DNA of 64,000 nt. It comes from Candidatus Latescibacterota bacterium (lineage in GTDB: Bacteria; Latescibacterota; CBDEFO01). The position numbers were made by a program, and so were the translations under genes. The stretch lies in assembly GCA_965248755.1 (NCBI GenBank), contig OZ252149.1, forward strand, positions 960,001 through 1,024,000. The letters are read 5' to 3'. Shown one piece after another: positions 24,414 through 63,178 of this stretch (position 1 is the stretch's first letter; each line of letters opens with the position of its first letter). The notes beneath the pieces were generated by a model. It was given only the letters and a program-made list of their open reading frames with translations, searched no databases and was not told the DNA's origin.

Positions 24414-24935
24414 ATGACCACAAGGGAGCTTGCCAGATTGTCTCTGCTTACTGCCCTGACCGCTGTGGCTACCATGATCATAAAGGTTCCTACTCCAGCT
24501 ACCAAGGGCTATGTGAACCTGGGCGATTCGATGGTGTTCGTCTCGGCCCTTCTGTTCGGGGCAAAAACTGGAGCCATAGCAGGGGGCCTGGGATCATCTT
24601 TAGCTGACCTTTTGGGAGGATACTTCCTTTGGGCTCCGATGACACTATTTATAAAGGGGATAGAGGGACTCTTGGTCGGAAAACTTTTCAGTATGACTCG
24701 AAAGTCGCTTCTGGACAGAACCGGCATCCTTCTGGCTATTCCCATAATCCTTCTGGGCGGCGCCTGGATGCTGTCCGGCTACTTTATGTGTGAAACTCAG
24801 CTGTTCGGGTGGGGCGCCGCCTTGGGAGCACTGCCCGGCAACACCTTTCAGGCGATATTGGGGCTCGCAGTGTCCATTCCTACAGCAGCGGCGCTCACGA
24901 GGATGGGAATCGGTCAGGACGAATATATGGAGTAG
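24414..24935 (+). CDS. ECF transporter S component
   Basis: GYVNLGD, GLGSSLADL and WAPMTLFIKG motifs; hydrophobic. Confidence 0.88.
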   Translation: MTTRELARLSLLTALTAVATMIIKVPTPATKGYVNLGDSMVFVSALLFGAKTGAIAGGLGSSLADLLGGYFLWAPMTLFIKGIEGLLVGKLFSMTRKSLLDRTGILLAIPIILLGGAWMLSGYFMCETQLFGWGAALGALPGNTFQAILGLAVSIPTAAALTRMGIGQDEYME

Positions 24936-24980
24936 CCCCCGATTGAATCTATCGGGGGTAGATTGAAATCGGAGAATTAA

Positions 24981-25787
24981 ATGGATCTTTGCCGAAGGAT
25001 ATTGCCTCTTTTTCTTACCTTTATAATCTTCCTTACAGCTTATGAACCCGTCTACGCACAGAGGCCATTTATCACAGAAAACGCAGAACTCCTGGCTCCG
25101 GGCAGAATAGAACTGGAGATCGGCTTTGAGTATTGGGGCAAAAGCTACAACTTCCAAACGGACGCTAAATCAAGAACCCAAGTCAGATTGGGCGTCCTCG
25201 GAGCAAATATCGGAGTCGGAAAGATAGTCGAAATACAGCTCGCCTTCCCCTCCGCAGTCTTACAAAGTGACGACATCATCGGGAACGACAGGGACGTCGG
25301 TGATGCGACGTTCTTCACGAAGGTGAGACTCTTCAAAGAACGAGGATCCTATCCCTCAGTAGCAGTCAGGTTCGGAACGAAGCTACCCAACGCCGAAGAG
25401 GAGTTCGGCATTGGCACAGATGAAAACGACTTTATGGGATCGTTCCCGATCACCAAGAATTTCGGCTCGCTGCGCACTTCTTTGGACTTGGGGTTAGGCA
25501 TCCTCGGAAATCCGACAAGGAACAACGCCCAGCACGATGTCTACACTTTTGGACTGTCGCTTATGTACCCGTCGAAAGGGACTTTGAGCTTTCTGTCGGA
25601 GATATACGCTAGAAAAGGGACATCACGGTTCGATGACCTCTTATCCGTCCGCGCCGGTCTTCAGTTCAAGAGCAAAAAGGGACACAGATTAGATGTAGTG
25701 GGGAGCATCGGAATGGCTGAAGAAAGCCCCGAATGGGAGATTACTACCGGATTGGCGTGGGATTTCAAGGCGTTCAGCCTGCAATAG
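24981..25787 (+). CDS. Exported outer-membrane beta-barrel protein (MetA-pathway transporter-like)
   Basis: Signal peptide, RPFITENA start, GDATFFTK, alternating beta-strands, C-terminal GLAWDF. Confidence 0.65.
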   Translation: MDLCRRILPLFLTFIIFLTAYEPVYAQRPFITENAELLAPGRIELEIGFEYWGKSYNFQTDAKSRTQVRLGVLGANIGVGKIVEIQLAFPSAVLQSDDIIGNDRDVGDATFFTKVRLFKERGSYPSVAVRFGTKLPNAEEEFGIGTDENDFMGSFPITKNFGSLRTSLDLGLGILGNPTRNNAQHDVYTFGLSLMYPSKGTLSFLSEIYARKGTSRFDDLLSVRAGLQFKSKKGHRLDVVGSIGMAEESPEWEITTGLAWDFKAFSLQ

Positions 25788-26063
25788 CCCGAAAATGGTA
25801 GACAGCAAACAGGGACTCCCCCTGCTCCCTCCGGTCTACGACATTGCTGCGGGCCCCCGATAGATTCAATCAGGGGTCACCCCTCGCAAAGACTAAGGGT
25901 CGAATCCCAGCACCGTCACTCCGAGCACGTCCTGTGTCATTGCGAGACAAAGCCCAGAGCGTAGCGAAGGGTCAGCGAAGCAATCTCAAGGGGTGGGAGG
26001 AAGTACCCCCTGTCTACTAACTGCTGTCTACTTGGTAGGGCTGGGAGGAGATGGAGAAATATA

Positions 26064-28067: not shown

Positions 28068-29063
28068 CTACAGCCTTTCCCACTTCCATATCTTGACCCA
28101 CCCCTCAGCTGATTCCGGCCCCCAGTTTGGATGAAATAGCTGTAACTGATATAGATTCCCATTTCCATCTACAACAAAATCATCACCATCACCTGGTCTG
28201 GGTACGGTTTTCTTAGGACATTCAGGAATTTTCCCAAGGTACTCTCCACCACTACCGTAAATTTCCATACTAAACTTTCGCTCATCTAGTGCATTAACAA
28301 ATGAGTTGCCTTGTCCATCAATTGCGACTAGATCTCCCACGCGTGAGCCCTGCTTAGTAAATGTTACTGGCAATCCAGAGATGCCTTTTTCAGGGCGTTG
28401 CGCATATCGCTCAAACGCTCCCCAAGGGTCTCCGCCTTCCGGATAATTATGTAACAAAGTATAATCAGAAAAGGCTGAGGTAGTTATTCGGCGAACATAT
28501 CCCCTTGATAGCACAGTCGTGCCTTCCTTGTTAAGAAATAGAGCACGTGAGTCACCGAATATGGATATATCCCCCTTAGAATTAACGCGCAGGGAAAGCT
28601 CAGTAAAACGTCCAAACTCACACTGAAAGTGGCTCACAAACTTAGCCTGATTGTCTAATTTAGAGCCTCTCAAAACCTCCATCGCCCTATTCTCAGTCAC
28701 TACATAAATGTTACCCTGGTTATCCGCCTCCAAACTTGCCCCTATGCGTATCCGCCATCCATCTTCAGGCGGCCTCCATGCAAGTATGAACTTTCCATTC
28801 CTGTTAAACTTCTGTATCCTAGCATTCACATCGTCTTGAATCCAGAAGTTACCATTGGAATCAACAGTAAAATCATACGGATATACAGGCTCACCTTCTG
28901 GCTTTGGCTCACTCCGTCCAAACTCTCCTGGATTTGCCCCTTCTGGAGCGGAGAAAACAACTTTGGGGTTTTTAAACAGAATCTGGGCTTTGGCTGAGGC
29001 AATACAACAGCACAGTAGCGCCGCTGTGATTCCTACGGAAATAGAGAAAATTCTTTGCTTCAT
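28068..29063 (-). CDS. Exported NHL-repeat/beta-propeller protein (candidate partner or immunity protein of the NlpC/P60)
   Basis: Signal peptide ending AKA-Q; PYDFTVDSNGNFWIQDDVNARIQKFNRNGKF and further DxxGN repeats. Confidence 0.75.
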   Translation of the reverse strand: MKQRIFSISVGITAALLCCCIASAKAQILFKNPKVVFSAPEGANPGEFGRSEPKPEGEPVYPYDFTVDSNGNFWIQDDVNARIQKFNRNGKFILAWRPPEDGWRIRIGASLEADNQGNIYVVTENRAMEVLRGSKLDNQAKFVSHFQCEFGRFTELSLRVNSKGDISIFGDSRALFLNKEGTTVLSRGYVRRITTSAFSDYTLLHNYPEGGDPWGAFERYAQRPEKGISGLPVTFTKQGSRVGDLVAIDGQGNSFVNALDERKFSMEIYGSGGEYLGKIPECPKKTVPRPGDGDDFVVDGNGNLYQLQLFHPNWGPESAEGWVKIWKWERL

Positions 29064-29149
29064 ATGTATAACTCCTAGTATTTACCGAAGTCTTTCAGGA
29101 CCGAATCCTATATGAAGGAACACATTAACTATTTAATTCAGTACAGTGA

Positions 29150-29740
29150 TCAACACCCCTTGGGTCTTAGAACTACTCGATCATGGGTTGAATTCTCACC
29201 CCAATAGGTGTTAGTTGACATATTTCTATCATTTTTTTTGTTAATGCTGTCAGGATCGTCATTATTCTGGTTACCAGATGCTGTGTGTATATCGACCACA
29301 TTATTGCCTTCCAGTTTTGTAATAATTCCACCGTGGGTAAATTCATTGCTATCAACTTTTAAGGCAATGATATCGCCTCTTTTATAGTCGCCTGTCGCTG
29401 TGACTTCATCGAAGTGAGTACGGTTATTAGCGATACCGTCCATATTTGTGTCGCCAATATCTTTCCCGGACACTGCAAGAGTCGTAAGGACAAGTCCTGA
29501 ACAGTCCAAACCCTCATCACAAGTACTCGTGAACTCGTTGTTATTATATTCATCTTCCCGTTCAGAGGGTGTACCGTGTCCTCCTCCCCAAGTATAATCA
29601 CAACCATTCAGGTTTTCCGCAATGTCTGCTATACAATCGCCTATGCTAGAGCAGCCGCCACCAGAGCTCCCTATCTGTTTCAAACTAACTACGCAAAGCA
29701 AGCAAATCAGCGCTGTGAGAAGAAATAACCACTTTTTCAT
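29150..29740 (-). CDS. Exported NlpC/P60 (C40) cysteine peptidase
   Basis: YTWGG, GLDCSGLV, GDII, THGGI and IHTAS motifs; N-terminal signal peptide. Confidence 0.85.
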   Translation of the reverse strand: MKKWLFLLTALICLLCVVSLKQIGSSGGGCSSIGDCIADIAENLNGCDYTWGGGHGTPSEREDEYNNNEFTSTCDEGLDCSGLVLTTLAVSGKDIGDTNMDGIANNRTHFDEVTATGDYKRGDIIALKVDSNEFTHGGIITKLEGNNVVDIHTASGNQNNDDPDSINKKNDRNMSTNTYWGENSTHDRVVLRPKGC

Positions 29741-29770
29741 ACTGTAACCCTCCTTATTGTCAAGACTTTA

Positions 29771-30080
29771 TAACGTCCCACCGCTTCTTTTATGTATCAT
29801 GAGCAAGACTCTCCTTGATTTCCGCACTAGTTCTGGATAATTCACATGCTCGTCTATCAGCTTCTCCAGAATTTCTTTGGCTTGTTCGTACTCGCCCACT
29901 CTAAAATTGATTTGACCTATCGAGTAACGTTCCACCGCTTCTTTTATGTATCATGAGCAAGACTCTCCTTGATTTCCGCACTAGTTCTGGATAATTCACA
30001 TGCTCGTCTATCAGCTTCTCCAGAATTTCTTTGGCTTGCTCGTACTCGCCCACTCTAAAATTGATTTGACCTATCGAGTA
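29771..30080. repeat. 154-bp tandem duplication of the variable 3' tip of the TPR gene
   Basis: 29771-29926 vs 29925-30080, two mismatches, TA microhomology at the junction. Confidence 0.92.
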
Positions 30081-31718
30081 TTGAGCCAATGCTACAAGGT
30101 TGGGATATAACTCGCCTACTTTATGATATTGGGCAATGGCATCCTTGTATTTTCCCTGTTGTTCATAAACGTACCCTAACGCCATTAGAATTGATACCCC
30201 GCTTTCCCCGAGGGAATCCCTTCTTTGCGCCAAAACCTTCCAAGACTCCTCATACATCTTCGCGACTTGCTCGAGTCCTACGAGTTTGATCCTGGGATGC
30301 ACTGTGTGTACGACATCAAACTCATATTGGGCAATGGCATCCTTATATATCCCTTGTCGATAAGCATCTCCAAACGCTATTAGTCGGGAACCTTCTCGCT
30401 CCTTCCAGACCTCTTCATACAACTGGAAGCCTTGATTATATTCTCCCAGTTTGATCTTATATAGCCCCATTTCTACGGTCGCATACTTTGCCAAATATGA
30501 ACCTGAGTCCACAATATTGAGTATCTGCTCACAACTCGTAATAGCTTTTTGATATTCCCCCAAGGCATCATACGCATTAGCCATCACCTGTTGGGCCTGG
30601 CATCTTACAATCTCTGATGATGAAAGATGCACAAGTCTTTCCATTGTCTGAATCACTTTCTGATACTGTCCAGACTGCCAATAAAATCTGCCCAGAAGGT
30701 ACACCGCCCGTCTTCTTTGCCTATCTTCCTTGCGGATCTCGACCCACTCTTCCAATTTTGCCTGAGCTTCAGTTATCTTGCCTTCGGAGATAAGGCCATA
30801 AATATCCTGAAGTTCTAAGTCCTCCTGCGGCTCCATGGTCACCACCAGCTCCTGTGAACCTTGTTCTACTTTCACCTTCCCGACGACTAAGTCTACCATC
30901 TCCGAAGACTCTGTAACACCTTCTATCTGTACCACCCCGTAGGGACCCCCACTCTCGGTTCCCATCTGTACGACCTCGTAGGGATACCCACTCTCGGTTT
31001 CCTTATACCTAATCCAACTTAATACATTATCACGTTCTCCCCCATCATCATCATCTACAATTCTCACATTCAAACCGATTTGAGTTCCTTGAACGAATTG
31101 CCTTAAACCTAATACTTCTTTTGGTATACGCACTTCAACTGTATATCCGGTATCTGTCTGCTTAACTCCTGCCTCTACTCCTAAAAGCTCCCATATATAC
31201 GGAATCTCCTGCGCATAGGGATATGGCTCGACATTGAAAAAGACACCCGCACCTTCCAGATGAACCTTTCCCGGTGCGTCCATCACAATCCGTATCTCCC
31301 CGTCGTTGAGATCAAAATAGTCCTTCTCTTTCCCCCGCAACACTTGTACGTTCCCGTCCAGATCCCCATTAAAAGACACCTCCACAACATCATCCTGAAA
31401 CCATTTTCTGCCCCATGTAGTGCCTGAACAGACCAGGTCGTCGCTTACCTTAACCCCTATATACAGGTGATCCCTTCCCACAAAAGTCCGGAATCTTCCC
31501 GAAATGTCTGCCGCATCTGCTGTGGGTCCAAACCAGAAATGTTCAATATTGACTGCCTCTAACCCTATCTTGTCCCAGTCTGCTAAATCCCCATTTAGAG
31601 TAATCTTTAGATCTTCAACCAAAATGGTGGAGTAAGTTGTTCCTACAACATCGGACCAGGCTGAAAAAGGGAACGAAAGTGCAAGCGCCAAAGCTACTAT
31701 ACTGATCTTCCAATCCAT
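29901..31718 (-). CDS. Exported CBM9-like (DOMON-like sugar-binding) + TPR protein, copy A
   Basis: Signal peptide MDWKISIV (SD AGGAGG); ITLNGDLADW, LYIGVKVSDD, DVVEVSF, YTVEVRIP and GLNVRIVDDD motifs; multiple TPRs. Confidence 0.85.
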   Translation of the reverse strand: MDWKISIVALALALSFPFSAWSDVVGTTYSTILVEDLKITLNGDLADWDKIGLEAVNIEHFWFGPTADAADISGRFRTFVGRDHLYIGVKVSDDLVCSGTTWGRKWFQDDVVEVSFNGDLDGNVQVLRGKEKDYFDLNDGEIRIVMDAPGKVHLEGAGVFFNVEPYPYAQEIPYIWELLGVEAGVKQTDTGYTVEVRIPKEVLGLRQFVQGTQIGLNVRIVDDDDGGERDNVLSWIRYKETESGYPYEVVQMGTESGGPYGVVQIEGVTESSEMVDLVVGKVKVEQGSQELVVTMEPQEDLELQDIYGLISEGKITEAQAKLEEWVEIRKEDRQRRRAVYLLGRFYWQSGQYQKVIQTMERLVHLSSSEIVRCQAQQVMANAYDALGEYQKAITSCEQILNIVDSGSYLAKYATVEMGLYKIKLGEYNQGFQLYEEVWKEREGSRLIAFGDAYRQGIYKDAIAQYEFDVVHTVHPRIKLVGLEQVAKMYEESWKVLAQRRDSLGESGVSILMALGYVYEQQGKYKDAIAQYHKVGELYPNLVALAQYSIGQINFRVGEYEQAKEILEKLIDEHVNYPELVRKSRRVLLMIHKRSGGTLLDRSNQF

Positions 31719-31736
31719 GCTAATCCTCCTTTGCAT

Positions 31737-32404
31737 TTATTTTAGCAAAACCATTTTCCTTGTCTTCACAAATTTTCCTGCAGCTAGTTTGAAGAAATAC
31801 ACTCCGCTGGCGACCTTCTGTTCCTGATCATCCAAGCCATTCCATATGACGGAGTAATAATCAGGCGCCTGGGGCTCATTCACCAATGTCCGTATCTTCT
31901 GCCCCATAATGTGAATATCTTCAATTGCGTGGGAACAGTTTCAGTTCCTCCCAATGTATACTGAATCACTGTAACTGGATTGAACGGATTGGGTGCGTTC
32001 TGCGTGAGCGCGAAGGACTTTGGACGAGCCTTTTTAATCTCTACCAACACCTCGAATGTCCAAGTACGGCCATCCGCAACGCTTAACACTATTGGTAGCT
32101 CGAAGGTTTCACCCACCACTTCTTCCTCCACATACATGGGAATCGTTAGTTTTTCTGTTCCAGTAGACCTTTTAGGTATATCTATCCGCTTCACTAGTTC
32201 TCCGATCTGAACCCACTCGGGTAGATCTTTCGCTCTCACTTCAACCCCTACCCCCTTTAAAGTCAATTCTCCCTCATTTACTACTGAAAGAAATACTAAG
32301 TTATCACCTTCATATAAACCCAACACCGGCAATTCATCTCCCTGCACTACTCCAAGAAACATTACCAGCATCAATAATCCTATGAAATAAATTATGCGAA
32401 TCAT
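31737..32404 (-). pseudogene. T9SS-type C-terminal sorting (FlgD-Ig) domain protein, copy A, 1-bp deletion
   Basis: Paralog of 36604..37272; one T missing near 31910 (ATAATGTGAAT vs ATAATGTTGAAT); 668 vs 669 nt. Confidence 0.88.
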
Positions 32405-33015
32405 CGAACCCTCCTTCTTTTGTAGGCTTACTAATTCATAAGAAATTCTTTTTTTTTCTACTAGAATAAATACGTCTTCTCGATCACATCTGCCATCGAC
32501 AATACTATAGTACAATTCCAACCCTTTTTTGATGATAAAATATATATATTTTACAAATATTTAGTATTTATCAATCATTCTACAAATACTATAAGAAATT
32601 TATATCACTGTCATAGTATAGATACGTGAGAGAGACAAAACATCCAAAACTTTTTTGAGTTTTTATAAATTCAAGATAGAGTACAATACCTTAAAGAAAG
32701 TATTAATAAAATTAAGAGTTTAGATGATATATAGAATTTTTGAGGACTTTGAGTGATTTCACAGATTTCAGCCTTTAATCAGCTAGAGTCACTGGAAATG
32801 GAGAGATTTCGCCTACAGATAAACTTAAGGGAAGAGGAAAACAATGTGGGTGAAGTAAGGATGATTTGCCTAAAAGAAATTAGCCTGTGAAAGTAGATAC
32901 GTCAACTGGGGATGGGATCATGCACTTCTTCAAGAAAATCTGACACAGTAGCATCGATTTTAGAAGAGTGCAATTCATACCACTTCGATCTGGAAATATG
33001 GAATCCATACATATA

Positions 33016-33843
33016 TTACTCAGAATTCACAGGGCTCTGTGACTCGTTTTTTGATTGCCGGGCAGCTCTTATCTTTTCTATAGCCTTCTTTGCATAGATC
33101 CTGTTCTCGTACCTACCACTGTTAGGTTGAACATATGGATCTTGCGCTGCTATCTTCTGCAGAATAGGAATAGTGGAAGCATCCCCAAAAACCTCTAATG
33201 CCACGATATTGGGTGTCCTATATGTGACCTTCGAATCCCCTAAAAGAGAATGAAGACGCTCCCTGATATTATCTTTATCTTCTTTAGTCAAAAAGTTGGG
33301 ATCCAACGTAGCAATCTTCCTGAGTGTTAACATAGCTCCCCTTCTTATTCTTCGTCGGGTACTACCTAGCGAATCAATAATGTCAGGCACTACGGAGCGT
33401 CCAAGTTCCATCAAACCCCAAGCTACTCCTCGTCCATACTTCATGCCTTCAAGCTGAATAGCTTTGGAGCGCTCATCGCCTATTCTACCCAACAGCTCTA
33501 GAATTCCTAATGTACTTTCCGCTTGTAATTCCCCTGGTGGCCCCTTTAATAGAGGTTCCGTCTCTAGTTCATTGAATCTGTATATTAACGCAGGCACAGC
33601 TGGCCTGACTGCGTCTTTACCCTCTCTACCGAGAAGTCTCCACAATTTAGTAATCACAATGCTTGCAGAACGAAGATCGCCGTGCTTGATTATTTGGGCA
33701 TCATCATCTGAAAAAGACCAGCCCTCCACATCAAATAAGGTTCTTTGCTCTTGAGCATCCCCTTGTGTACTTAGCCAATTGGTAGCGGAGAGAACTAAAG
33801 TGACACATACGAAGAAAAGTAGCAGAGAGTATTTTCGTTTCAT
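33016..33843 (-). CDS. Exported HEAT-repeat protein (candidate partner or immunity protein of the M15 peptidase)
   Basis: Signal peptide; PAVPALI, LLGRIGDER, ALEVFGDASTIPIL and AKKAIEKI HEAT-like helices. Confidence 0.72.
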   Translation of the reverse strand: MKRKYSLLLFFVCVTLVLSATNWLSTQGDAQEQRTLFDVEGWSFSDDDAQIIKHGDLRSASIVITKLWRLLGREGKDAVRPAVPALIYRFNELETEPLLKGPPGELQAESTLGILELLGRIGDERSKAIQLEGMKYGRGVAWGLMELGRSVVPDIIDSLGSTRRRIRRGAMLTLRKIATLDPNFLTKEDKDNIRERLHSLLGDSKVTYRTPNIVALEVFGDASTIPILQKIAAQDPYVQPNSGRYENRIYAKKAIEKIRAARQSKNESQSPVNSE

Positions 33844-33947
33844 CTTATATTCCTTTCGAGGATCTTTAAACTCATCTTTGGAGATGGAAGCGAAGAAGGT
33901 AAATTCTCAATATTCCATCAGCTTGCACATATATCCATGTCCACCTG

Positions 33948-34493
33948 TTAGCAAGGAGGGACAGAACCAGTTCTTAAATGAAGATGATCAGACTTCTTTT
34001 TTACAAAATCAAAGTAAAGATTAACTCCGGTCTCAATTCTATCCCTTTCACTATCAGATGATAGGGATTGCCATAAAGTATCCCCTACACCATACTTCCA
34101 ACCATCACCAGCTGTACCATACATATGGCGACTTTTTGGTGTACCACCTTCATTATCATTCCAATCGGGAGTTCTGTAAATACTTGAGGCAGTAACCTTG
34201 TCATCATACCATTCTCGAAAGCAATCCATGTTATCCATGTGTTCTTGGTTCCATACCCAGTAGTTAGCACCATCGTTACTATTCATCTCGTTCTCTCCGA
34301 AATAAGTAGATGTTTGATCACAAGTAAATTCTGCCCTATCAGGTTCTGGTAAACCCAGAGCTCCGTACTGTGATTGTATCTGATGAATCTCGTCATGCCA
34401 CGAATAAGTATTGCTCCACAAAAGCGCTGCTACTAGTAACACGACAAACAGAATTATGATTTCTCTTGGCTGCATCTTTATCTCCCTTTCCAT
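33948..34493 (-). CDS. Exported peptidase M15A-like (Zn D-Ala-D-Ala peptidase, LAS fold)
   Basis: SSIYRTPDWNDNEGGTPKSRHMYGTAGD (SxHxxGxAxD) and HLHL motifs; signal peptide. Confidence 0.82.
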   Translation of the reverse strand: MEREIKMQPREIIILFVVLLVAALLWSNTYSWHDEIHQIQSQYGALGLPEPDRAEFTCDQTSTYFGENEMNSNDGANYWVWNQEHMDNMDCFREWYDDKVTASSIYRTPDWNDNEGGTPKSRHMYGTAGDGWKYGVGDTLWQSLSSDSERDRIETGVNLYFDFVKKKSDHLHLRTGSVPPC

Positions 34494-34605
34494 TTCACGT
34501 TAAGGTTAGCAACCTTATGGTGTTCTGCTTCGCTATGGACTTGTAGTTCATAAAGATAATACTCCTCTCTTCTGCCGGGAATCTAAGCCAGGATAATTGT
34601 TAGTC

Positions 34606-36585
34606 TTACTGTTCAATTCCCTGCAATTGCAGGAATTCGGAGAAGACTTCCTTAAACACTCCCCGTTTGCGGAACATATCCCCTACAGTGCGAATGAGTC
34701 GGCCATTGAGGCCCTCATGAGCATGGTCAAGGAGATCTTTATATATGGTTGCAGCTTCCTCATATCTGCCAGCATTCACCATATCCAACGCATTTCCGAC
34801 TACCCTCCATTCCTCTCCGGGATAATTTCTTCTCATAGCATAGAGTTGTTCCAAATAAATTTGTGTATTAGCAAGGTACTCTTTAGAAATAACGTCAGCA
34901 TAATTATCCAGTACCTTTTCGAACTCCACGATAGCACGATCAACTTCAAACAGTAACCAGTAATTGTAGCCTATCGAATATTGAGCCGATGCTTCAAGGT
35001 TGGGATATAACTCCATAACTTTCTGATATTGGGCAATGGCCTCTCTATGTCTTCCCTGTTTTTCATAAACAGATACTAGCGCCATTAGAATTGATACCCA
35101 GCTTTGCCCGGGGGAATCTTTTCTACGCTCCAAAACCTCCCAAGACTCTTCATACATCTTCGCCACTTTCTCAAGTCCTACCAGTTTGATCCTGGGATGC
35201 ACTGTTTGTACGACATCACTCTCATATTGGGCGATGGCATCCTTATACATACCCTGTCCTTGATAAGCAGCTCCAAACGCTAATAGTCGAGAACCTTCTC
35301 TTTCCTTCCAGGCCTCTTCATACAGCCGCAAGCCTTGCTCATATTCTCCCAGTTTGATCTTATATAGCCCCATTTCTACGGTCGCATACTTTGCCACATA
35401 TGAACCTGAGTCTACAATATTGAGTATCTGCTCACAACTCGTAATAGCTTTTTGATATTCCCCCAAGGCATCATACGCATTAGCCATCACCTGTAGAGCC
35501 TGGCATCTTACAATCTCTGATGATGAAAGATGCACAAGTTTTTCCATTGTCTGAATCACTTTCTGATACTGTCCAGACTGCCAGTAAAATCTCCCCAGAA
35601 GGTACACCGCCCGTCTTCTTTGCGTATCTTCCTTACGGATCTCGACCCATTCCTCCAATTTGGCCTGAGCTTCAGTTACCTTTCCTTCGGAGATAAGAGC
35701 AGAAATAGCGTGCACTTCTGAGCTCTCCTGCGGCTCCATAGTCACCAACAGCTCTTGTGAACCTTCTTCTACTTTCACCTCCCCAACAACTAAATCTACC
35801 AACTCGGAAGCCGCTGGAACTGCTTCTACCTGTACTATCCCATAGGGTATCGTACCCTCGGTTTCCTTTTCTCTAGTCCAACTTAAAACATTGTCATGTT
35901 CTCCCCCATCATCATCATCTATAATTCGCACATTCAAACCGATCTGGGTTCCTTGAACGAATTGCTCCACACCTAATACTTCTTTAGGTATACGCATTTC
36001 AACTATATATCCTGTATCTGTACGCTTAACTACTGCCTCTACTCCTAAAAGCTCCCATGTATACGGAATCTCCTGATCGTAGGGATCTGTCACGGGATAG
36101 AAAAAGACTCCTGAACCTTCCAGATGAACCTTTCCCGGTGCGTCCGCCACAATCTGTATCTCCCCGTCGTTGAGATCGAAATAGTCCTTCTCCCATATCT
36201 CAAACACCGGTATCTTGTCAGCGTCCAGATCCCCATTAAAAGATATCTGCACGACATCATCCTGAAACCATTTTCTGCCCCATGTAGTGCCTGAGCACAC
36301 CAGGTCGTCGCTTACCTTAACCCCTATATATAGGTGATCCCTACTCACAAAAGTCCGGAAGTTTCCCGAAATGTCTGCCGCATCTGTTGTGGGTCCAAAC
36401 CAGAAATGTTCAATATTGACTGGCTCTAACCCTATCTTCTCCCAGTCTGCTAAATCCCCATTTAAAGTAATCTTTGGATCTTCAACCAAAATGGTGGAGT
36501 AAGTTGTTCCTACAACATCGGACCAGGCTGAAAAAGGGAACGAAAGTGCAAGCGCCAAAGCTACTATACTGATCTTCCAATCCAT
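34606..36585 (-). CDS. Exported CBM9-like + TPR protein, copy B
   Basis: Highly similar to copy A up to AQYSIG, then an unrelated ~120-aa tail. Confidence 0.88.
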   Translation of the reverse strand: MDWKISIVALALALSFPFSAWSDVVGTTYSTILVEDPKITLNGDLADWEKIGLEPVNIEHFWFGPTTDAADISGNFRTFVSRDHLYIGVKVSDDLVCSGTTWGRKWFQDDVVQISFNGDLDADKIPVFEIWEKDYFDLNDGEIQIVADAPGKVHLEGSGVFFYPVTDPYDQEIPYTWELLGVEAVVKRTDTGYIVEMRIPKEVLGVEQFVQGTQIGLNVRIIDDDDGGEHDNVLSWTREKETEGTIPYGIVQVEAVPAASELVDLVVGEVKVEEGSQELLVTMEPQESSEVHAISALISEGKVTEAQAKLEEWVEIRKEDTQRRRAVYLLGRFYWQSGQYQKVIQTMEKLVHLSSSEIVRCQALQVMANAYDALGEYQKAITSCEQILNIVDSGSYVAKYATVEMGLYKIKLGEYEQGLRLYEEAWKEREGSRLLAFGAAYQGQGMYKDAIAQYESDVVQTVHPRIKLVGLEKVAKMYEESWEVLERRKDSPGQSWVSILMALVSVYEKQGRHREAIAQYQKVMELYPNLEASAQYSIGYNYWLLFEVDRAIVEFEKVLDNYADVISKEYLANTQIYLEQLYAMRRNYPGEEWRVVGNALDMVNAGRYEEAATIYKDLLDHAHEGLNGRLIRTVGDMFRKRGVFKEVFSEFLQLQGIEQ

Positions 36586-36603
36586 GCTAATCCTCCTTTT
36601 CAT

Positions 36604-37272
36604 TTATTTTAGCAAAACCATTTTCCTTGTCTTCACAAATTTTCCTGCAGCTAGTTTGAAGAAATACACTCCGGTGGCGACCTTTTGTTCGTGATCATCC
36701 AAGCCATTCCATATGACGGAGTAATAATCTGGCGCCTGGGGCTCATTGACCAATGTCCGTATCTTCTGCCCCATAATGTTGAATATATTCAATTGCGTGG
36801 GAACAGTTTCAGTTCCTCCCAATGTATACTGAATCACTGTAACTGGATTGAACGGATTGGGTGCGTTCTGCATGAGCGCGAAGGACTTTGGACGAGCCTT
36901 TTTAATCTCTACCAACACCTCGAACGTCCACGTACGGCCATCTGCAACGCTCAACACTATTGGTAGCTCGAAGGCTTCACCCACCATTTTTCCCTCCACA
37001 AACATGGGAATCATCAGCTTTTCTGTTCCAGTAGACGTTTTAGGTATATCTATCCGCTTCACTGCTTCTCCGATCTGAACCCACTCGGGTAGATCTTTCG
37101 CTCTTACTTCCACCCCAACCCCCTTTAAAGTCAATTCTCCCTCATTTACTACTGAAAGAAATACTAAGTTATCACCTTCATATAACACCAATACTGGCAT
37201 TTCGTCTCCCTGCACTACTCCAACAAACGTTACTAGCATCAAAAGTCCCGTGAAATAAATTCTGCGAACCAT
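36604..37272 (-). CDS. Exported protein with T9SS-type C-terminal sorting (FlgD-Ig) domain, copy B (intact)
   Basis: Signal peptide; QNAPNPFNP...YNIMGQKIRTL-type segment...WNGLD...ATGVYF...TRKMVLLK. Confidence 0.88.
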   Translation of the reverse strand: MVRRIYFTGLLMLVTFVGVVQGDEMPVLVLYEGDNLVFLSVVNEGELTLKGVGVEVRAKDLPEWVQIGEAVKRIDIPKTSTGTEKLMIPMFVEGKMVGEAFELPIVLSVADGRTWTFEVLVEIKKARPKSFALMQNAPNPFNPVTVIQYTLGGTETVPTQLNIFNIMGQKIRTLVNEPQAPDYYSVIWNGLDDHEQKVATGVYFFKLAAGKFVKTRKMVLLK

Positions 37273-37626
37273 CGAACCCTCCTTACTTTTATAGGGTTAC
37301 TACTTCATAAGAAATTCTTTTTTCTTCTACTAGAATATATACGTCTTCTCGATTTATCTTTAATCACCGACAGTATACGACAAGTTCAGTCCTTTGTCAA
37401 GACTTTTTTTGGTATTATTTTGATAATACCTATATATTTTACAAGTTGTTATATATGTCCAGTATTCTATAAATACTACAATAACTATATGTAAAAATAG
37501 ACCATCCCTGCATTAGATTACTGCCCCTGTATGAGAGCAATCTTAGATGGACACTTTGTCGAACACTACCGGGAAATTATCTTCCAACCTGTTTCTCTTC
37601 CCTATAGTCTATCATCTTTTTCAGCA

Positions 37627-39054
37627 TCATATCCTGTCAGCCGTAGAAAGGAGGAACGACTCGATCTCCTCCCTGTATTCACACCCCTTCTTCGATTCCC
37701 TGAATGTCGTAAGCCACGTTCTCATCTTTTTTGATCCCTCTGCTTTTCCGTTCAACTCGATCAGGCCCTGCAAGATGCCCTTGAACGCTCTAAAAGGTGT
37801 CATTACCCCGATGTGCAGAGCCTGTGCTTCCTCAGATTCCGCATCTGTCGCCTTTAACGTTATCAATCTATGAATAAATTCAGGAACGTCCACACCGTCC
37901 TCGTAGCCCTTGACCATAGTCAACTTAACGCTGATTTCCCCCGCAGTGGTCTGACCACCTGTAGCCGAGTTCCGCCTGAAGACAAAATCCCCGCCGTTGA
38001 TCCATAGCCCCTTGGACAGAATCGACCGCCCCTTTTCCGGATCGGAATAGATAGTCAAGATCTTGGCGATCTCCTCGCTTACGCTGCCCGAATCCTCCTC
38101 ATCCAGCAACTCGTGATCATCCTTGCTGTGCCACACTATAAACCTATCACCATTTTCCGAATACTTCATGTGTAGCTCTTTATATCCATCCAGCCACTCT
38201 TCAGCCACAATCCCGATCTTGATAGATTCCTGGCTCCTTTTCGCTTGGGAAAACCCGAATAAGTAGGGCTGGGGCACATAGCTGCCATTTACGGCGTAGC
38301 ATTCCGCAGCAGTCCGATACGCTCCGAGCAGCACATCGCTGCTTGGTTCGTTTTTGGCCGCGTGCAGGGCGAACTCTGCGTTCTGTTCCCTGTCCTTTAG
38401 CTCCACCCTTATATGAAAGACGCCTGTAAATTTCCCCTCAGCTATAGACTGCATCTCTACATCCCTAATGTCTTTAAGATCCACCCTCTCTCTGAGAAGG
38501 CACTCAAGAACATGCAGGAGATACCTCGCCCCGTCTCCGGACAGATGGCGATGGACCACAGCCCTCATCTGCTGCGGAGCGATCCCCTCTTCCAAATAGG
38601 CGTTGATGTCGAATCTCTCCTCTCCTCTATCAGGATAGAAGGGCTTAGATTTGAAAGCCACCTGCTCTCCACGGGCGTCAATTATTCTCCAATATCGGCC
38701 TATTTCCATCTCAAACTGACGAATCTTGAGATAATCAGACGCCTTAAGAAACGCTGTAAAGGCTCCATAAGAGGCAAGCTGACCTAAACACTTCATAACG
38801 CCCTGAATGCGCTCCTCTAACGTCTGATCTTTCAATAATATCAGCTTCTCGACAAGCTCTTTCTCTTTGCTGTTCGCCTTCAACCATCCATCCAGATATG
38901 AACTCCGTCCATCCGCTTCCGTTCCATTGAAGACATCTATGGCGTCTACCAGTAAGACGCTAATTGAGATCCAGGGGTCCATGTCGGGGTTGATCCCCAT
39001 GAGACGATCATATAATGGATGTTGTCTGATGAAGCGATCCATGTAGCCTCGCAT
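37627..39054 (-). CDS. Hypothetical protein with possible atypical kinase-like C-terminal domain
   Basis: Long ORF in operon after oppB; IAEGKFTGVF, FALHAAK, VPQPY, AEEWLDG and NGGDFVF segments. Confidence 0.6.
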   Translation of the reverse strand: MRGYMDRFIRQHPLYDRLMGINPDMDPWISISVLLVDAIDVFNGTEADGRSSYLDGWLKANSKEKELVEKLILLKDQTLEERIQGVMKCLGQLASYGAFTAFLKASDYLKIRQFEMEIGRYWRIIDARGEQVAFKSKPFYPDRGEERFDINAYLEEGIAPQQMRAVVHRHLSGDGARYLLHVLECLLRERVDLKDIRDVEMQSIAEGKFTGVFHIRVELKDREQNAEFALHAAKNEPSSDVLLGAYRTAAECYAVNGSYVPQPYLFGFSQAKRSQESIKIGIVAEEWLDGYKELHMKYSENGDRFIVWHSKDDHELLDEEDSGSVSEEIAKILTIYSDPEKGRSILSKGLWINGGDFVFRRNSATGGQTTAGEISVKLTMVKGYEDGVDVPEFIHRLITLKATDAESEEAQALHIGVMTPFRAFKGILQGLIELNGKAEGSKKMRTWLTTFRESKKGCEYREEIESFLLSTADRI

Positions 39055-40105: not shown

Positions 40106-40323
40106 ATTTGACTACCGAATAAGTTGGTAGAACAGACATTTTTGTCTGTTCAGTAGACAGGTGAGATTGCTTTGTCAGACAGGAATGTCTGACCCACCAG
40201 GTTTCACCCCTTGCGATGACTGAAGGCCAAAGCCAAGCAACGTCATTGCAAGCAACCTCCGATTGAATCTATCGGGGGGAAGCAATTTACGTTAGACTGC
40301 CTCTCCTCCCTGTATGCTGTTTA

Positions 40324-58917: not shown

Positions 58918-61900
58918 TTACTTACTCACGGCCGCCTTTATGAAGACCTCTTCCTGTTTCCCGTTACCCGTAGCCTCAAGCCGAAAGATGTAAAGACCGC
59001 TTGCGTAATTGCTCATATCCATCAGGATTTCATTATCCGACACCGGTTCTAAATCGTCCTTTGACATCTCTCCCACAAGCTCTCCCGCTCCGTTGAACAT
59101 TTTGACGTTTATCCTGGCTTCTCCTCCCAGGAAGAACCTTAAATGAGCCGAATCACCATCTATGGGATTGGGATAACAGTAAGCTCTGTCCGAAGGCAGA
59201 AGACTTACAGATTGCGGGGGGGGGGATGTAACACCCGGATAGACTCCTGGATTAGCCGGACCTGCGTTTGACTGACCCCACGTTATATCGGTTCCCGTGT
59301 AGGATGAAGCTATCTTGGATATGTCCCAGACATGAGCAGTACCCGAGGCGGTCAGAGCGCACAGTTCGAGGCGGTCATCGCCATCCAAATCATCTATTAC
59401 AAGCGATGAGACGATATCTCCTATCGAGGTTAGAGGAAATCCGGAGGCTATTTGACCGTCAGAACGGAGGGCGTAGACCAGATCTTGCGATGTCCCGAAA
59501 ATTATCTCCTGATCCCCGTCGCCATCTATGTCAGCCGCGATAGGCGAAGATGCGATCCCTCCGACCTTATCCTTCAGAGGCAAAATGAGGGGAAAATTGG
59601 CCTCTGGGATGCCGTTAAACCTCCAGGCGTGCACCTTTCCCTCTCCCGTAAATACAACCTCCAAAGAACCGTCTCCATCCAGATCGGTCAAAATAGGGGA
59701 CGACCGAATATCATCTCCGATATCTGCCTGGAACAGCGGACGTTCCTCCCCGATAGACTCAATCAGGGATTTAGAATAGACAGTCAAAATCCCATTTTCT
59801 GACAGGAGGATAATTTCAACCTTCCCGTCTCCATCCATATCTCCAAGCACGGGAGAACCTGAGGGACGACCTTCGATATTGCCGACCGGAGCTTGCTCTC
59901 CGCTTCCGTCCTCTCCTACGATAAATAGTTCTCCCTCTTCGTTGACAGCAATTATGTCCTTGCCCTTTATTGCTATCCCGACTATCTTTGACCCTCCTGT
60001 TTCGACTTTGCGAAGGAGGCTCCCATCCTGGCCATCTAAAATGGCAATTGAACCGTCGTCTGAGCCTACTATAACTTCTCCTGTCGCATCCGTATCCACG
60101 TTAGAGATAATTGGAGCCGTCGAGGCACCTATCCCCTCTATTCTCCACAGTAGAGAAGTGGACTCAGAGTTCCAAGAAGATACGTCTCCGTTTTCGTGAA
60201 CCAGCACGACTTCTGGCGTCAAATCCCCATCCACATCGCCTACCGCAGGGTCGAGTAGGACACCAGAATCCGTCTGAAAGGCAGAAAGAGTCGTCCCATC
60301 CAACCTCCAGATATGCACATTGCCATCGCGCGCGACGGCTATTATCTCTTTTTCCCCATCTCCATTTACATTAACGGTCTTCGGAGACGCCACGAATCCC
60401 GACGGCAAAGAGAGCGGCCATCCTTCCTTATTTGCGTTAAACGTAATTTCCACCGTCATTTCATCTTGTAGAGAGTCCTTCACAACTATCGTAATACCCG
60501 TCACTGTCCCGGACTTGCTATCTGAACTCGGGACAGTAGAGGGCGAAAAGGCCGTCGCTCCGCCCACAAAAAAAGGATCTTTCTTTGACCCGGCGATCCC
60601 GGCGATCCTATCGAAATTAAGATTGCCGATGTCCTCATAGCCGTCTGCCTCTTCAAGGTCTATGCCTCTGTCAAAGGAATCATCATTTATACTTCCTGTA
60701 GCTCTTTTTCCCCTTATAACGGCCTTGTCTATATGCCATATCAATATCCCTGATCCGGGGATATAGGAATCGTAGCTGTCGACGGAGAGCCACACTCCCG
60801 CGCTGTCCCCTGTCGAATACTCCACATCGGGAAGTTCACCCTCCCGTCGTCTCATCTGTCTGTTTTCCAGGAGAAAGTATTCGTCGGAGTCTATGGGAAC
60901 CAAAACCGCTTTGGGGTGGTGGGACGAAATGTCTGTTGCTGCAATGGTCAGAGTCGTATCTCTGGTCACCTTTAGGGGGTCTATCCATCCGAGTTCTATC
61001 TTCGACCACGCCATGGGATAGCTCGGAACGTATCCCAGAAGCCCAGCTCCCACGTTTATAAATCCAGTATCCATCAAACTCCAGCCACCTACGGCGGGGA
61101 GATTATCTTCAAAGTTCGATAGCCCCGGAAGTCCCAGTTGATTCCCAAAGATCCGCGCCGCCGTCCCGTTCAAGCCGCCTACGCCATTTTGACTTATAGA
61201 CTCCGGAAGTATCCAACCGTTATCTATGGCGAAAGATCCTTCCTCCACAAAGACAGGACCGCCCACAAAAGTATCAAAGTCACGAGGAGATAGATAGGCA
61301 GATGGGATATCGTTCAAAGCTCCTGTGCTGCCGTCCATCCCTGCGTGGATGACCAGAAAACTGTTGTACTGCTCAAAATCTAAGTTGTCCCCTTCCACAG
61401 AATCGGCCAAGGATAAGGCGTTCTTAAACAGATCAACCAACCTTTGATCGATCTCGTCCTGATTCCTCCCGTTTCCGTAGCTTATCATTGTTCGTCGGAG
61501 CTTGTAGCTGGAGTCCTGTTTTGTCGGGAAGACATCGAATCGGATCTCTACCTTGCCCTCTGAGACTTTATCGTAGTAGTTGGCAAGGGCCTGAAGATGC
61601 CATTCGAAGTACTGGCGATTGTGCGGGGGGGTGTCGTAGGGAAATTCATACGAGGGGAGGGCTTCCTGGAAGCTCCTCAGATCAAATATACCGTCCCCTG
61701 TGGTTGTAGGATCGTCCGGCTCCTCTTTAGGGAACTCCACCCTTAGTGCCAAAATGTTCCACACGGAGTCGACCCCCCCGATTAAATCGGGGGTCGACCT
61801 CTCTTGGTCCGAGGACGAAGATGCGGCAAACGATAACACCAAGCAAAGAGCAGATAGGCTAAGGCAAAGACAGCTACGCAGTTCCTTCGCCTTTCCCTTC

Positions 61901-61965
61901 TTCTTTCTATAGTGTGGACGTTCCTTTGCCTTAGGAGCGTTGCAAGAAGGCTTTGCCATCCTCAC
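58918..61965 (-). CDS. M6 (immune inhibitor A)-like domain lacking HExxH + FG-GAP repeats + T9SS-type C-terminal domain
   Basis: ILALRVEF, VIHAG, WSLMD.G, AWSKIELGW, EYFLLENR, GILIWH and LEEADG segments; GDVDGD repeats; YCYPNP...SGLYIF. Confidence 0.82.
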   Translation of the reverse strand: MRMAKPSCNAPKAKERPHYRKKKGKAKELRSCLCLSLSALCLVLSFAASSSSDQERSTPDLIGGVDSVWNILALRVEFPKEEPDDPTTTGDGIFDLRSFQEALPSYEFPYDTPPHNRQYFEWHLQALANYYDKVSEGKVEIRFDVFPTKQDSSYKLRRTMISYGNGRNQDEIDQRLVDLFKNALSLADSVEGDNLDFEQYNSFLVIHAGMDGSTGALNDIPSAYLSPRDFDTFVGGPVFVEEGSFAIDNGWILPESISQNGVGGLNGTAARIFGNQLGLPGLSNFEDNLPAVGGWSLMDTGFINVGAGLLGYVPSYPMAWSKIELGWIDPLKVTRDTTLTIAATDISSHHPKAVLVPIDSDEYFLLENRQMRRREGELPDVEYSTGDSAGVWLSVDSYDSYIPGSGILIWHIDKAVIRGKRATGSINDDSFDRGIDLEEADGYEDIGNLNFDRIAGIAGSKKDPFFVGGATAFSPSTVPSSDSKSGTVTGITIVVKDSLQDEMTVEITFNANKEGWPLSLPSGFVASPKTVNVNGDGEKEIIAVARDGNVHIWRLDGTTLSAFQTDSGVLLDPAVGDVDGDLTPEVVLVHENGDVSSWNSESTSLLWRIEGIGASTAPIISNVDTDATGEVIVGSDDGSIAILDGQDGSLLRKVETGGSKIVGIAIKGKDIIAVNEEGELFIVGEDGSGEQAPVGNIEGRPSGSPVLGDMDGDGKVEIILLSENGILTVYSKSLIESIGEERPLFQADIGDDIRSSPILTDLDGDGSLEVVFTGEGKVHAWRFNGIPEANFPLILPLKDKVGGIASSPIAADIDGDGDQEIIFGTSQDLVYALRSDGQIASGFPLTSIGDIVSSLVIDDLDGDDRLELCALTASGTAHVWDISKIASSYTGTDITWGQSNAGPANPGVYPGVTSPPPQSVSLLPSDRAYCYPNPIDGDSAHLRFFLGGEARINVKMFNGAGELVGEMSKDDLEPVSDNEILMDMSNYASGLYIFRLEATGNGKQEEVFIKAAVSK

Positions 61966-61981
61966 AGGTGGACGATCCGCC

Positions 61982-63037
61982 TTAGAAGTTCAAGTTTACC
62001 GAAAACTTCGTGCTGTCCTGGAGGGGAGAATCCTTCGAACCGCCAGAGATGTAGGCAAAATCGAATCTCACCCAGTCGTACTTGAGACCTACGCCGAAAG
62101 TCGGGGTTTTGATCTCGCCGTCCTTGTCGTAGGTGTAACCGGCTCTCAGAGCGAAAAAGGAGTTTTGATTGGGATCCAGAAAGTACTGATACTCTCCTCC
62201 CAAGTGGATGTCAATTTCGTCTCTTTCATTCTTGAAGGATTCATCTCCCCACGCCTTGACCAAAGCTACCAGGAAGTTACTGTCCCTGGTTATTAAGGGC
62301 TTATAGAAGTCGGTCGTCAGCATTATGTCGTTAAACTCGGTGTTGAGGATCTTGTACGACGCTCCGACTACGATGTGCTGAGGTAGTGGATCTGCCTGAG
62401 AAGCATCTACGAAGCTGATTTTGGGCCCCAGGTTGCGAAGGGCGACTCCGAAGTTGATGCCGTCTTCTGAGCGCCGCAGGTAGCCAAGATCGGTGGCGAA
62501 CGTTGTGCCGACGCCATCTCCTCTCTCCTTACCGGTGCCTACACCTGCAAGATTGCTGCGGATTATCTTGAGCGTAAGACCCGCTGCACTCTCTTTAGTT
62601 ACAAACGCTCCGTACGAAAGTGAAAGGGCAAAATCGTAGCTGGAGAACGTTCCTAAATCGTTGTTGAACTCGTCTCTCCTTTCCTGAGTTCCCAAAGTGA
62701 GGAACGAAAGGTTGACCCCGAAGTTTCCCCATCCTTCAATAGGCTGAGAGTATCCGACAAACTCGAAGAACAGGTCATCCGCCAGCCCTGGAAGCCACTT
62801 GGTATGGGTAAAGGTCATATCCCTCTTTTTCTGTCCCGCTAAGCCAGCAGGATTAAAGTAGCTGGCTGTGGCGTCGTCCGCTATAGAAACGTAAGCGTCG
62901 CCTAAGGCTGAGGCCCGTGCCCCCGGCTCTATCAACAGAAAGAGGACAGCAGCCTGGCTTTCTGGCGTAGCCTCTGAAGGTGGTGCAAGAGAGAGGAACA
63001 TTATCGCTGAGATGACGATACGAATGACTAGTTGCAT
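61982..63037 (-). CDS. porV: PorV/PorQ family T9SS outer-membrane protein
   Basis: FLLIEPGARASALGDA...DATASYFNPAGLA; terminal NLNF; start moved to MQLVIR (SD AAGGAGG). Confidence 0.85.
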   Translation of the reverse strand: MQLVIRIVISAIMFLSLAPPSEATPESQAAVLFLLIEPGARASALGDAYVSIADDATASYFNPAGLAGQKKRDMTFTHTKWLPGLADDLFFEFVGYSQPIEGWGNFGVNLSFLTLGTQERRDEFNNDLGTFSSYDFALSLSYGAFVTKESAAGLTLKIIRSNLAGVGTGKERGDGVGTTFATDLGYLRRSEDGINFGVALRNLGPKISFVDASQADPLPQHIVVGASYKILNTEFNDIMLTTDFYKPLITRDSNFLVALVKAWGDESFKNERDEIDIHLGGEYQYFLDPNQNSFFALRAGYTYDKDGEIKTPTFGVGLKYDWVRFDFAYISGGSKDSPLQDSTKFSVNLNF

Positions 63038-63178
63038 TTTTACCTCCTTTTGACAAAGGGAATAAAATAATTCCTTTGAGATTGCTTCGGGGTTCCACCC
63101 CTCGCAATGACTAAGGCAAAAGCCAAGCAAACTGTCATTGCGGGCGAAGCGAGGCAAACTCAATTCTGTCCTGGTTGA

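Follow-up and report, generated by a model that had tools for sequence, protein, structure and literature searches.

A recurrent carrier-adaptor gene cassette with exchangeable exported cargo and partner genes in Latescibacterota

A Recurrent Four-Gene Module

A 64,000-nt stretch of the genome of a Candidatus Latescibacterota bacterium (GCA_965248755.1, contig OZ252149.1, positions 960,001-1,024,000 of the forward strand; the whole stretch is hereafter called the window) contains two consecutive minus-strand gene cassettes, unit B and unit A. Each encodes, in order, a carrier composed of an immunoglobulin-like (Ig) domain and a type IX secretion system (T9SS) C-terminal domain (CTD), an adaptor with a CBM9-like domain and tetratricopeptide repeats (TPRs), a small enzyme, and an exported partner. 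This module is real, recurrent, and undescribed, and judging from the sequences it behaves like a polymorphic toxin-immunity system that falls outside every named family tested. A toxin-immunity-like conflict function is predicted from gene content and is, in our opinion, probable. The chances are even that the cassettes form a modular polymorphic effector-partner system, found in one or more phyla besides Latescibacterota, which works via a T9SS-type SprA/PorV route.

A first-pass annotation of this DNA had described two consecutive four-gene units of the same architecture on the minus strand, and both are present as described. Its term "near-identical" for the constant halves was too strong, because the shared stretch (30070-32603 in unit A versus about 34970-37490 in unit B) is a mosaic with 87.8% identity over 2565 nt by blastn and 64-98% identity across 150-column windows. 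The variable halves had been called unrelated, and there were indeed zero blastn matches between them. All eight products carry an N-terminal hydrophobic stretch behind basic residues, with no later transmembrane segment, in a simple hydropathy test (three cytoplasmic controls were negative and one lipoprotein control was positive), consistent with the eight signal peptides annotated earlier. The hydrolase genes are AT-richer, as had also been noted, with a GC content of 40.3% (M15) and 42.8% (NlpC), compared with 43-45% for the remaining cassette genes, 47-53% for neighbouring genes, and 48.9% for the genome.

The M15 and NlpC/P60 assignments of the two enzymes were upheld by Pfam matches over the cut-off (Table 1). 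The unit B M15 enzyme, whose nearest solved structure is 1lbu (E 8e-7), retains R101 and all the zinc ligands, namely H117, D124, and H164/H166 (H-x6-D and HxH), while sequence and alignment show the Cys-His-His triad (C80, H136, and H152) of the unit A NlpC/P60 enzyme, for which no close homolog was found. The unit B carrier scored 30.3 bits against TIGR04183 (cut-off 23), and the start codon of the unit B adaptor gene directly abuts the carrier stop codon. The HEAT_2 match of the unit B partner (E 1.5e-4) is below the cut-off, and those of both its genomic paralogs are above it. Two features of unit A had been overlooked. One is a frameshift in the carrier gene, which may be real or an assembly error; the other is a 154-nt duplication, which lengthens the adaptor by a few residues only.

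Distribution, Linkage, and Cargo Classes

A profile of the carrier Ig domain identified 47 carrier loci in 27 genomes of two phyla, i.e., 44 loci in 24 of 168 genomes of the phylum and three loci in 167 genomes of a second phylum. There were no matches in 86 genomes of the phylum of a Calditrichia record or in 201 sampled genomes of the phylum of a Zixibacteria record. Among 1.84 billion representatives, 192 matched the profile at E<=0.001, and 78 of the 150 matches listed were standalone proteins of 206-237 aa, the others being fragments or partial matches to large proteins. The carrier was found in none of 55 candidates from viral contigs and in none of 558 from metagenome contigs, and the ESM Atlas yielded generic CTD and CBM9 clusters only. 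A genome scan with the full carrier alignment picked up 76 loci via a generic PNPFNP motif; none of them matched the Ig-domain profile and they were rejected.

Twelve of the 47 loci (L-numbers below) stop at a contig edge, leaving 35 readable; three more end after the adaptor, and the cargo region is visible in 29. A TPR and/or CBM9 gene follows the carrier in 32 of the 35 readable loci (the exceptions are L152, L172, and L173). Omitted from these counts were L033, where no carrier lies upstream of the CBM9-TPR gene, and L036-L041, which are standalone CBM9-like periplasmic genes, kin of the adaptor N-terminal domain, situated directly upstream of chemoreceptor or sensor-kinase genes.

The 29 cargo regions, classified by hand and including kin genomes that are not independent, encode M15 (6), NlpC/P60 or a similar enzyme (2), M74/MepA or a similar enzyme (5), an enzyme with a Cys-His-Asp motif (6), a Cys-rich peptide (8), or no cargo (2). 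Among the 13 peptidoglycan peptidases, which belong to three unrelated families, four M15, one NlpC, and one M74 are over the Pfam cut-off, and the other seven were assigned from weaker scores, motifs, and homology. No solved structure or convincing Pfam match was obtained for the Cys-His-Asp cargo (the best was Transglut_core at E 0.043, in one of seven), and "transglutaminase-like" is therefore a motif-derived label only. The longer cargoes of L156, L161, L164, L165, and L166 share an N-terminal region ahead of their M15 or M74-like domains, which is common, for example, to the M15 of L156 and the M74-like enzyme of L164 (E 2.6e-5); its LPE-x-x-V-x-A motif presumably resembles a TonB box. 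The first-pass annotation had suggested tabulating the genes downstream of CTD and TPR pairs, and the outcome largely agrees with its expectation in that diverse small exported enzymes or peptides are followed by exported partners, with tandem arrays and orphans.

Seven loci of family f6 (L028-L032, L035, and L154) encode Cys-rich peptides with both a double-glycine (GG) leader and a signal peptide, together with a C39-DUF1573 protein, a 320-aa LolA-like partner, and, in five of the seven, BlaI/BlaR1. Double-glycine bacteriocin clusters are characterized by C39 processing and autoregulation. The f6 loci are similar to them in the Cys-rich GG-leader peptide, the C39 peptidase, and BlaI/BlaR1, but differ in the Sec signal of the peptide, in the fusion of C39 with DUF1573 and not with an ABC transporter, and in the operon beginning with the same carrier-adaptor pair. 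This gene content could also point to kin recognition or signalling, in which the cargo, either a Cys-rich GG peptide or an enzyme releasing wall fragments, would be the signal and the partner receptor-like. In L035, a further copy of the partner domain forms the end of BlaR1 (E 5.6e-68). We consider such a role improbable, since this fusion occurs in only one of the five BlaR1 loci, autoinduction is usual for bacteriocins too, and 19 of the 27 cargoes are enzymes whose catalytic residues are kept where examined.

Exchange of Adaptor Tip, Cargo, and Partner

The host genome (G000; G001 and G037 are relatives) contains six cassettes. Five of their carrier-adaptor pairs are alike (carriers 84-95% and adaptors 73-98% identical) and the sixth is distant. 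Their cargo sets are M15 with a HEAT-repeat protein in three cassettes, NlpC with a propeller protein in one, redoxins with a propeller protein and a Cys-rich peptide in one, and, in the last, a four-fold tandem of a small TPR protein, a Cys-His-Asp enzyme, and a partner. The units of this tandem (L005, G000:C1:3963920-3976979) are 3.1 kb long and mosaic, and were apparently amplified through their CTD-coding ends. The genome has three M15_3 genes and one NlpC/P60 gene, all of which sit inside cassettes. An adaptor follows nine of the 66 CTD gene ends that have an open reading frame (ORF) close downstream, all nine lying in these cassettes, and two of the 66 precede unrelated large TPR-type proteins with weak scores.

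Behind a constant carrier and adaptor, recombination has exchanged three elements, namely the C-terminal adaptor tip, the cargo, and the partner. Between unit B and genomic copy E, the adaptors are 98% identical (dS 0.03), while the M15 enzymes are 40% (dS 1.05) and the HEAT partners 55% (dS 0.66) identical, and just past the M15 signal peptide the DNA identity, about 90% up to there, is reduced to about 50%. The constant halves are patchworks, in which patches of 99-100% identity are common to changing pairs of copies, with divergence at the adaptor C-terminal tip. The tips cluster according to the class of cargo. Those linked to M15, five in number, are mutual best matches, six small TPR proteins precede the Cys-His-Asp enzyme in six of six cases and in two phyla, and the eight peptide-linked tips cluster together. 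Near-identical carriers head different cargo in the host and in G037, and cargo class changes at least eight times on a carrier tree of 26 rows (least possible 4; shuffled 15.4), which leaves out G001, L159, and L157, where an intact carrier or cargo is lacking. All cassette genes have dN/dS values of 0.20-0.78 and, therefore, diversification reflects exchange rather than detectable positive selection.

Occupancy of the site also varies. Two cassettes lie in the window, and the same site in relatives holds one cassette with four broken genes (G001), one cassette (contigs of public run X8), or none (a contig of public run X5). The G001 cassette (L027:6037-10320) has three in-frame stops, all TAG, at positions where homologs appear to have Trp. 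In the copy at 2.92 Mb of the host genome, an IS-rich insertion separates M15 and HEAT from the adaptor and brings in a Cys-rich peptide gene; the M15 start is lost, while the HEAT gene is intact. Copy E (L004, G000:C1:3032922-3045163) is located between phage portal and terminase large subunit genes, and another copy lies near an integrase. These two locations, together with the matches of M15 to an endolysin PHROG (E 6.5e-9) and of NlpC to a tail PHROG, would suit phage lysis genes or mobile-element debris gathered behind a strong promoter. We regard this explanation as very improbable, because no PHROG was matched by the carrier, the adaptor, or the partners, one architecture with fixed enzyme-partner pairing extends across six families and a second phylum, and every cassette gene is under purifying selection.

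Partners

Each enzyme or peptide is accompanied by an exported partner, and the partner families are specific to the cargo class. Tandem partner paralogs, 55-93% identical, were found in L159 (three), L166 (three), L164 (two), and L171 (two). L159 has partners without an enzyme, and intact partners stand beside broken enzymes in L161 and L166. Partners without an intact enzyme also occur at 2.92 Mb and 4.20 Mb of the host genome; at the latter, an orphan paralog of the unit A propeller partner, 71% identical, occupies positions 4199624-4200616. The "periplasmic inhibitor" role given to the partner in the first-pass annotation is in line with these tandem and orphan copies, but it is an incomplete description because some partners are fused to the adaptor or bear their own CTD.

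The latter applies to partners of the Cys-His-Asp group, three of which are fused in frame to a CTD. Four others, from two families (L005:7355 and L005:13555, at about 3.967 and 3.974 Mb of G000, L151, and L153), end in T TTT TA(A/G), the CTD being encoded in the -1 frame, and have a hairpin just after the stop; such ends were found in 19 of 2732 long ORFs as background. Judging from the junction sequences, a programmed frameshift giving a periplasmic and an exported form of the partner is possible.

Partner-adaptor and partner-CTD fusions, the CBM9-like fold of the adaptor, and the presence of at least 82 CTD-bearing gene ends in the host would also be explained if the cassette encoded a co-exported scavenging or surface-remodelling complex, which digests wall or protein debris and has the partner as a binding or folding subunit. 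This is unlikely in view of the diverged tandem partners, the partners that survive enzyme loss, the swapping of enzyme and partner as a pair, the dispensable and often decayed state of the cassette, and the C39 and BlaI/BlaR genes that accompany the peptide cargoes.

Carrier, Adaptor, and Possible Export Route

The AlphaFold2 model of the unit B carrier (pLDDT 94.5) consists of two beta-sandwich domains, the first of which has a generic Ig fold and the second of which best matches the CTD of PorU (Z 10.5, rmsd 2.6 over 91). Thus, with its signal peptide and C-terminal Por_Secre_tail fold, the carrier has the features of a T9SS type A substrate; the unit A copy is frameshifted. The adaptor was modelled as a CBM9 fold, matching 1i82 (TM-score 0.79 by target) as well as 7nwn, followed by a TPR solenoid. 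Ahead of the TPRs is a conserved strand, which is a candidate docking element on the carrier. Its E284 is nearly invariant in a 12-row alignment, and in the monomer model the strand lacks structure (pLDDT <50). A similar short hydrophobic strand, picked by eye, occurs in 24 adaptors, long and short; in the small ones, the mature N-terminus has no other element that is not helical. The alignment cut on this strand gives no independent support for it because the strand was picked by eye, and a co-fold of carrier residues 23-222 (79 rows) with the adaptor strand and TPRs (206 residues, 24 rows) scored 0.00, which speaks neither for nor against docking.

SprA was matched in the host genome with 625 bits and was found in 163 of the 168 genomes of the phylum. 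A PorV-family gene lies within the window itself (61982-63163), over the cut-off for PorV_fam and under that for the PorV equivalog. It belongs to a minus-strand group at 58918-64000 that comprises a PorU-like 3' end, this gene, and a gene for a 1015-aa CTD protein, followed by a TolB/Omp85-like gene. T9SS carries folded and very large proteins (PMC9251779).

Piggy-back export, in which the carrier and adaptor would take out cargo that lacks a CTD, is suggested by gene order, and we put its chances at even. Alternatively, the effector-partner logic might hold while the carrier and adaptor form a surface structure of unrelated function, with the cargo escaping in vesicles or upon lysis, or working inside the periplasm of its producer. 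In favor of that, the literature searched gave no T9SS cargo without a CTD, the carrier CTD of unit A is frameshifted while its cargo is intact, and searches of the host genome for GldM/GldN gave no match, although three control genomes were equally silent. The carrier-adaptor linkage in 32 of 35 loci, the abutting stop and start codons, and the exchange of the adaptor tip together with the cargo make this alternative rather improbable; moreover, a substitute in trans could come from the intact carriers at other genomic sites, which have 87-95% identity.

Proposed Mechanism and Points Against It

According to the mechanism we propose, all four proteins would reach the periplasm by Sec. The partner would bind the cargo enzyme there and so spare the producer's own peptidoglycan; inhibition is placed in the producer's periplasm because a wall peptidase bearing a signal peptide must pass through it. 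The variable TPR tip of the adaptor would hold the cargo while the conserved adaptor strand docks on the carrier, whose CTD would then carry the CTD-less cargo out through SprA/PorV. Outside, M15 or NlpC/P60 would cut stem peptides in the walls of competitors, for which exposed walls are a simpler target than diderm walls, and spare partner copies would guard against enzyme variants of relatives. That conflict function and piggy-back export both hold has a chance close to even at best. It is plausible, though somewhat more doubtful, that the cassettes provide, through a T9SS-type route, a CTD-less polymorphic arsenal of four enzyme families and Cys-rich peptides, loaded by the carrier and an exchangeable-tip adaptor for interbacterial conflict, with the T9SS motor perhaps missing and with cognate immunity partners, some in two forms by frameshift. 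The first-pass annotation had proposed a carrier and adaptor serving a swappable wall-lytic effector and its inhibitor; the diverse exported cargo and partners and their swapping agree with it, but wall-lytic cargo is not universal.

Several observations weigh against this mechanism. Fourteen of the 27 cargoes (the eight Cys-rich peptides and six Cys-His-Asp enzymes) have no recognisable wall hydrolase, and some peptidase calls are weak: the M74-like ones in family f7 come from Pfam E values of 0.012-0.1 or from a motif alone, L150 from a motif alone, and the final His pair is absent from the aligned L156 M15. The enzymes of the window have no visible domain for entry into a target periplasm, and the activity, toxicity, inhibition, and binding of the cassette proteins are predictions. 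Broken carriers are frequent (unit A, G001, L152, L034, and L157). In L149 and L150 the propeller partner and the adaptor form one protein, as do the HEAT partner and CBM9 in L156 (E 7.7e-19), and Cys-His-Asp-group partners carry their own CTD; such fusions suit an inhibitor and a co-exported subunit equally well. In L150, moreover, the HEAT family accompanies an NlpC-like cargo and not M15. Kin genomes are non-independent observations, the tip-cargo clustering is partly confounded by kinship, and the cross-family match between M15 tips is weak (11-16 bits). No cassette gene has a dN/dS above 1, and no positive selection was seen.

Relation to Known Systems

No description of a carrier-adaptor system for CTD-less cargo was found in the literature searched, most subscription journals being outside the search, and the earlier statement that no system of this architecture has been described is likewise in agreement with that literature. 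The export principle is possibly new. The closest known system is that of the TANFOR toxins of Bacteroidetes, in which CTD-less proteins with signal peptides are encoded beside CTD genes, with downstream immunity genes, and export by T9SS was hypothesised; the toxin is at times encoded by a separate downstream gene (PMC7073777). The likeness consists of CTD-less signal-peptide proteins, a CTD gene nearby, and T9SS genes in the host. None of six window proteins, however, matched the TANFOR domain (TIGR02542) in NCBIfam at E<=0.01, and the cassette has neither TANFOR nor Fn3. Small enzymes or peptides encoded as separate proteins serve as its cargo in place of the tip of a large protein. Further differences are the CTD gene, which comes from one dedicated 220-aa family, the CBM9/TPR adaptor, whose tip is linked to the cargo, the export of the partners, and the Latescibacterota host.

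Polymorphic toxin loci have been described as having the enzyme gene ahead of its partner, immunity genes in strings, and exchange of cassettes (PMC3482391). The cassettes resemble these systems in the constant 5' trafficking part, the exchangeable 3' toxin-immunity pair, and the strings of immunity paralogs, and HEAT repeats as immunity proteins and NlpC/P60 and transglutaminase-like toxin domains are also known there (PMC3482391); the available text of that paper contains neither "T9SS" nor "Por secretion". By contrast, the constant part of the cassette comprises two genes, and M15, M74, and peptide cargo stand behind one module. The window cargoes are standalone proteins of 175 and 196 aa, unfused to trafficking domains, and only those of the L156/L164 type have the shared N-terminal extension.

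Tae/Tai pairs are type VI secretion system (T6SS) peptidoglycan effectors with exported immunity proteins. Among WHIX T6SS effectors, NlpC/P60, M15, and MepA-like domains were found beside signal-peptide genes (PMC12135965). Such effectors are injected with T6SS domains, whereas the cassette enzymes have Sec signal peptides and lie behind a CTD carrier. The CTD fold and profile match of the carrier are those of T9SS type A substrates, as in the CTD structures of PorU, PorZ, and mirolase (PMC10994853, PMC10202324), but its own passenger is one Ig domain, neither catalytic nor adhesive, and the presumed passengers are separate proteins.

A role of T9SS in interbacterial killing was proposed for TANFOR, with no demonstration in the literature searched. 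The cassette has four genes in <5 kb, and one genome offers cognate and non-cognate pairs (three M15-HEAT and one NlpC-propeller); therefore, both T9SS-mediated killing and the export of CTD-less cargo can be tested in laboratory hosts. If true, our proposal would enlarge the catalogue of polymorphic toxins by another mode of delivery, would add new inhibitor families for wall peptidases, and might allow T9SS export of chosen proteins.

Features of the Window

The coordinates of the cassette features are given in Table 1.

Table 1. Features of units B and A (window positions).
Position	Strand	Feature	Evidence or remark
37372-37400	-	Sigma-70-like promoter of unit B, TTGACA-17-TATACT	Best scan site, 11 of 12 consensus matches; consensus match alone
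36604-37272	-	Unit B carrier, 222 aa: signal peptide, Ig-like domain, T9SS type A CTD	FlgD_ig; TIGR04183
34606-36603	-	Unit B adaptor, 665 aa: signal peptide, CBM9_1, linker strand, TPR solenoid	
35731-35754	-	Conserved linker strand, adaptor residues 284-291, candidate docking element	Precedes TPRs
33948-34475	-	Unit B cargo, 175 aa: Peptidase_M15_3 (Zn, LAS type), signal peptide, no CTD	Pfam E 9e-11
33016-33843	-	Unit B partner, 275 aa: exported HEAT-repeat protein, candidate immunity protein or chaperone	HEAT_2
32405-33015	-	Spacer and AT-rich leader of unit A	Common to other genomic copies
31737-32404	-	Unit A carrier, frameshifted near codon 170 within CTD	tblastn pieces 1-170 and 165-222
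29901-31736	-	Unit A adaptor, 611 aa: CBM9-like domain, TPRs	78% identical to unit B adaptor; C-terminal tip differs
29771-30078	.	154-nt tandem duplication	Copies 99% identical; covers end of unit A adaptor gene
29150-29740	-	Unit A cargo, 196 aa: NlpC/P60 peptidase, signal peptide, no CTD	Pfam E 3.5e-5
28068-29063	-	Unit A partner, 331 aa: exported beta-propeller-like protein	Propeller matches all below cut-off

An ORF of 475 aa at 37627-39054, which is present in a single copy and has no Pfam match, is kept upstream of the cassette in G001. A REP-like palindromic repeat of 28-30 nt occurs in three copies in the window (24929-25883 and 40251-40278).

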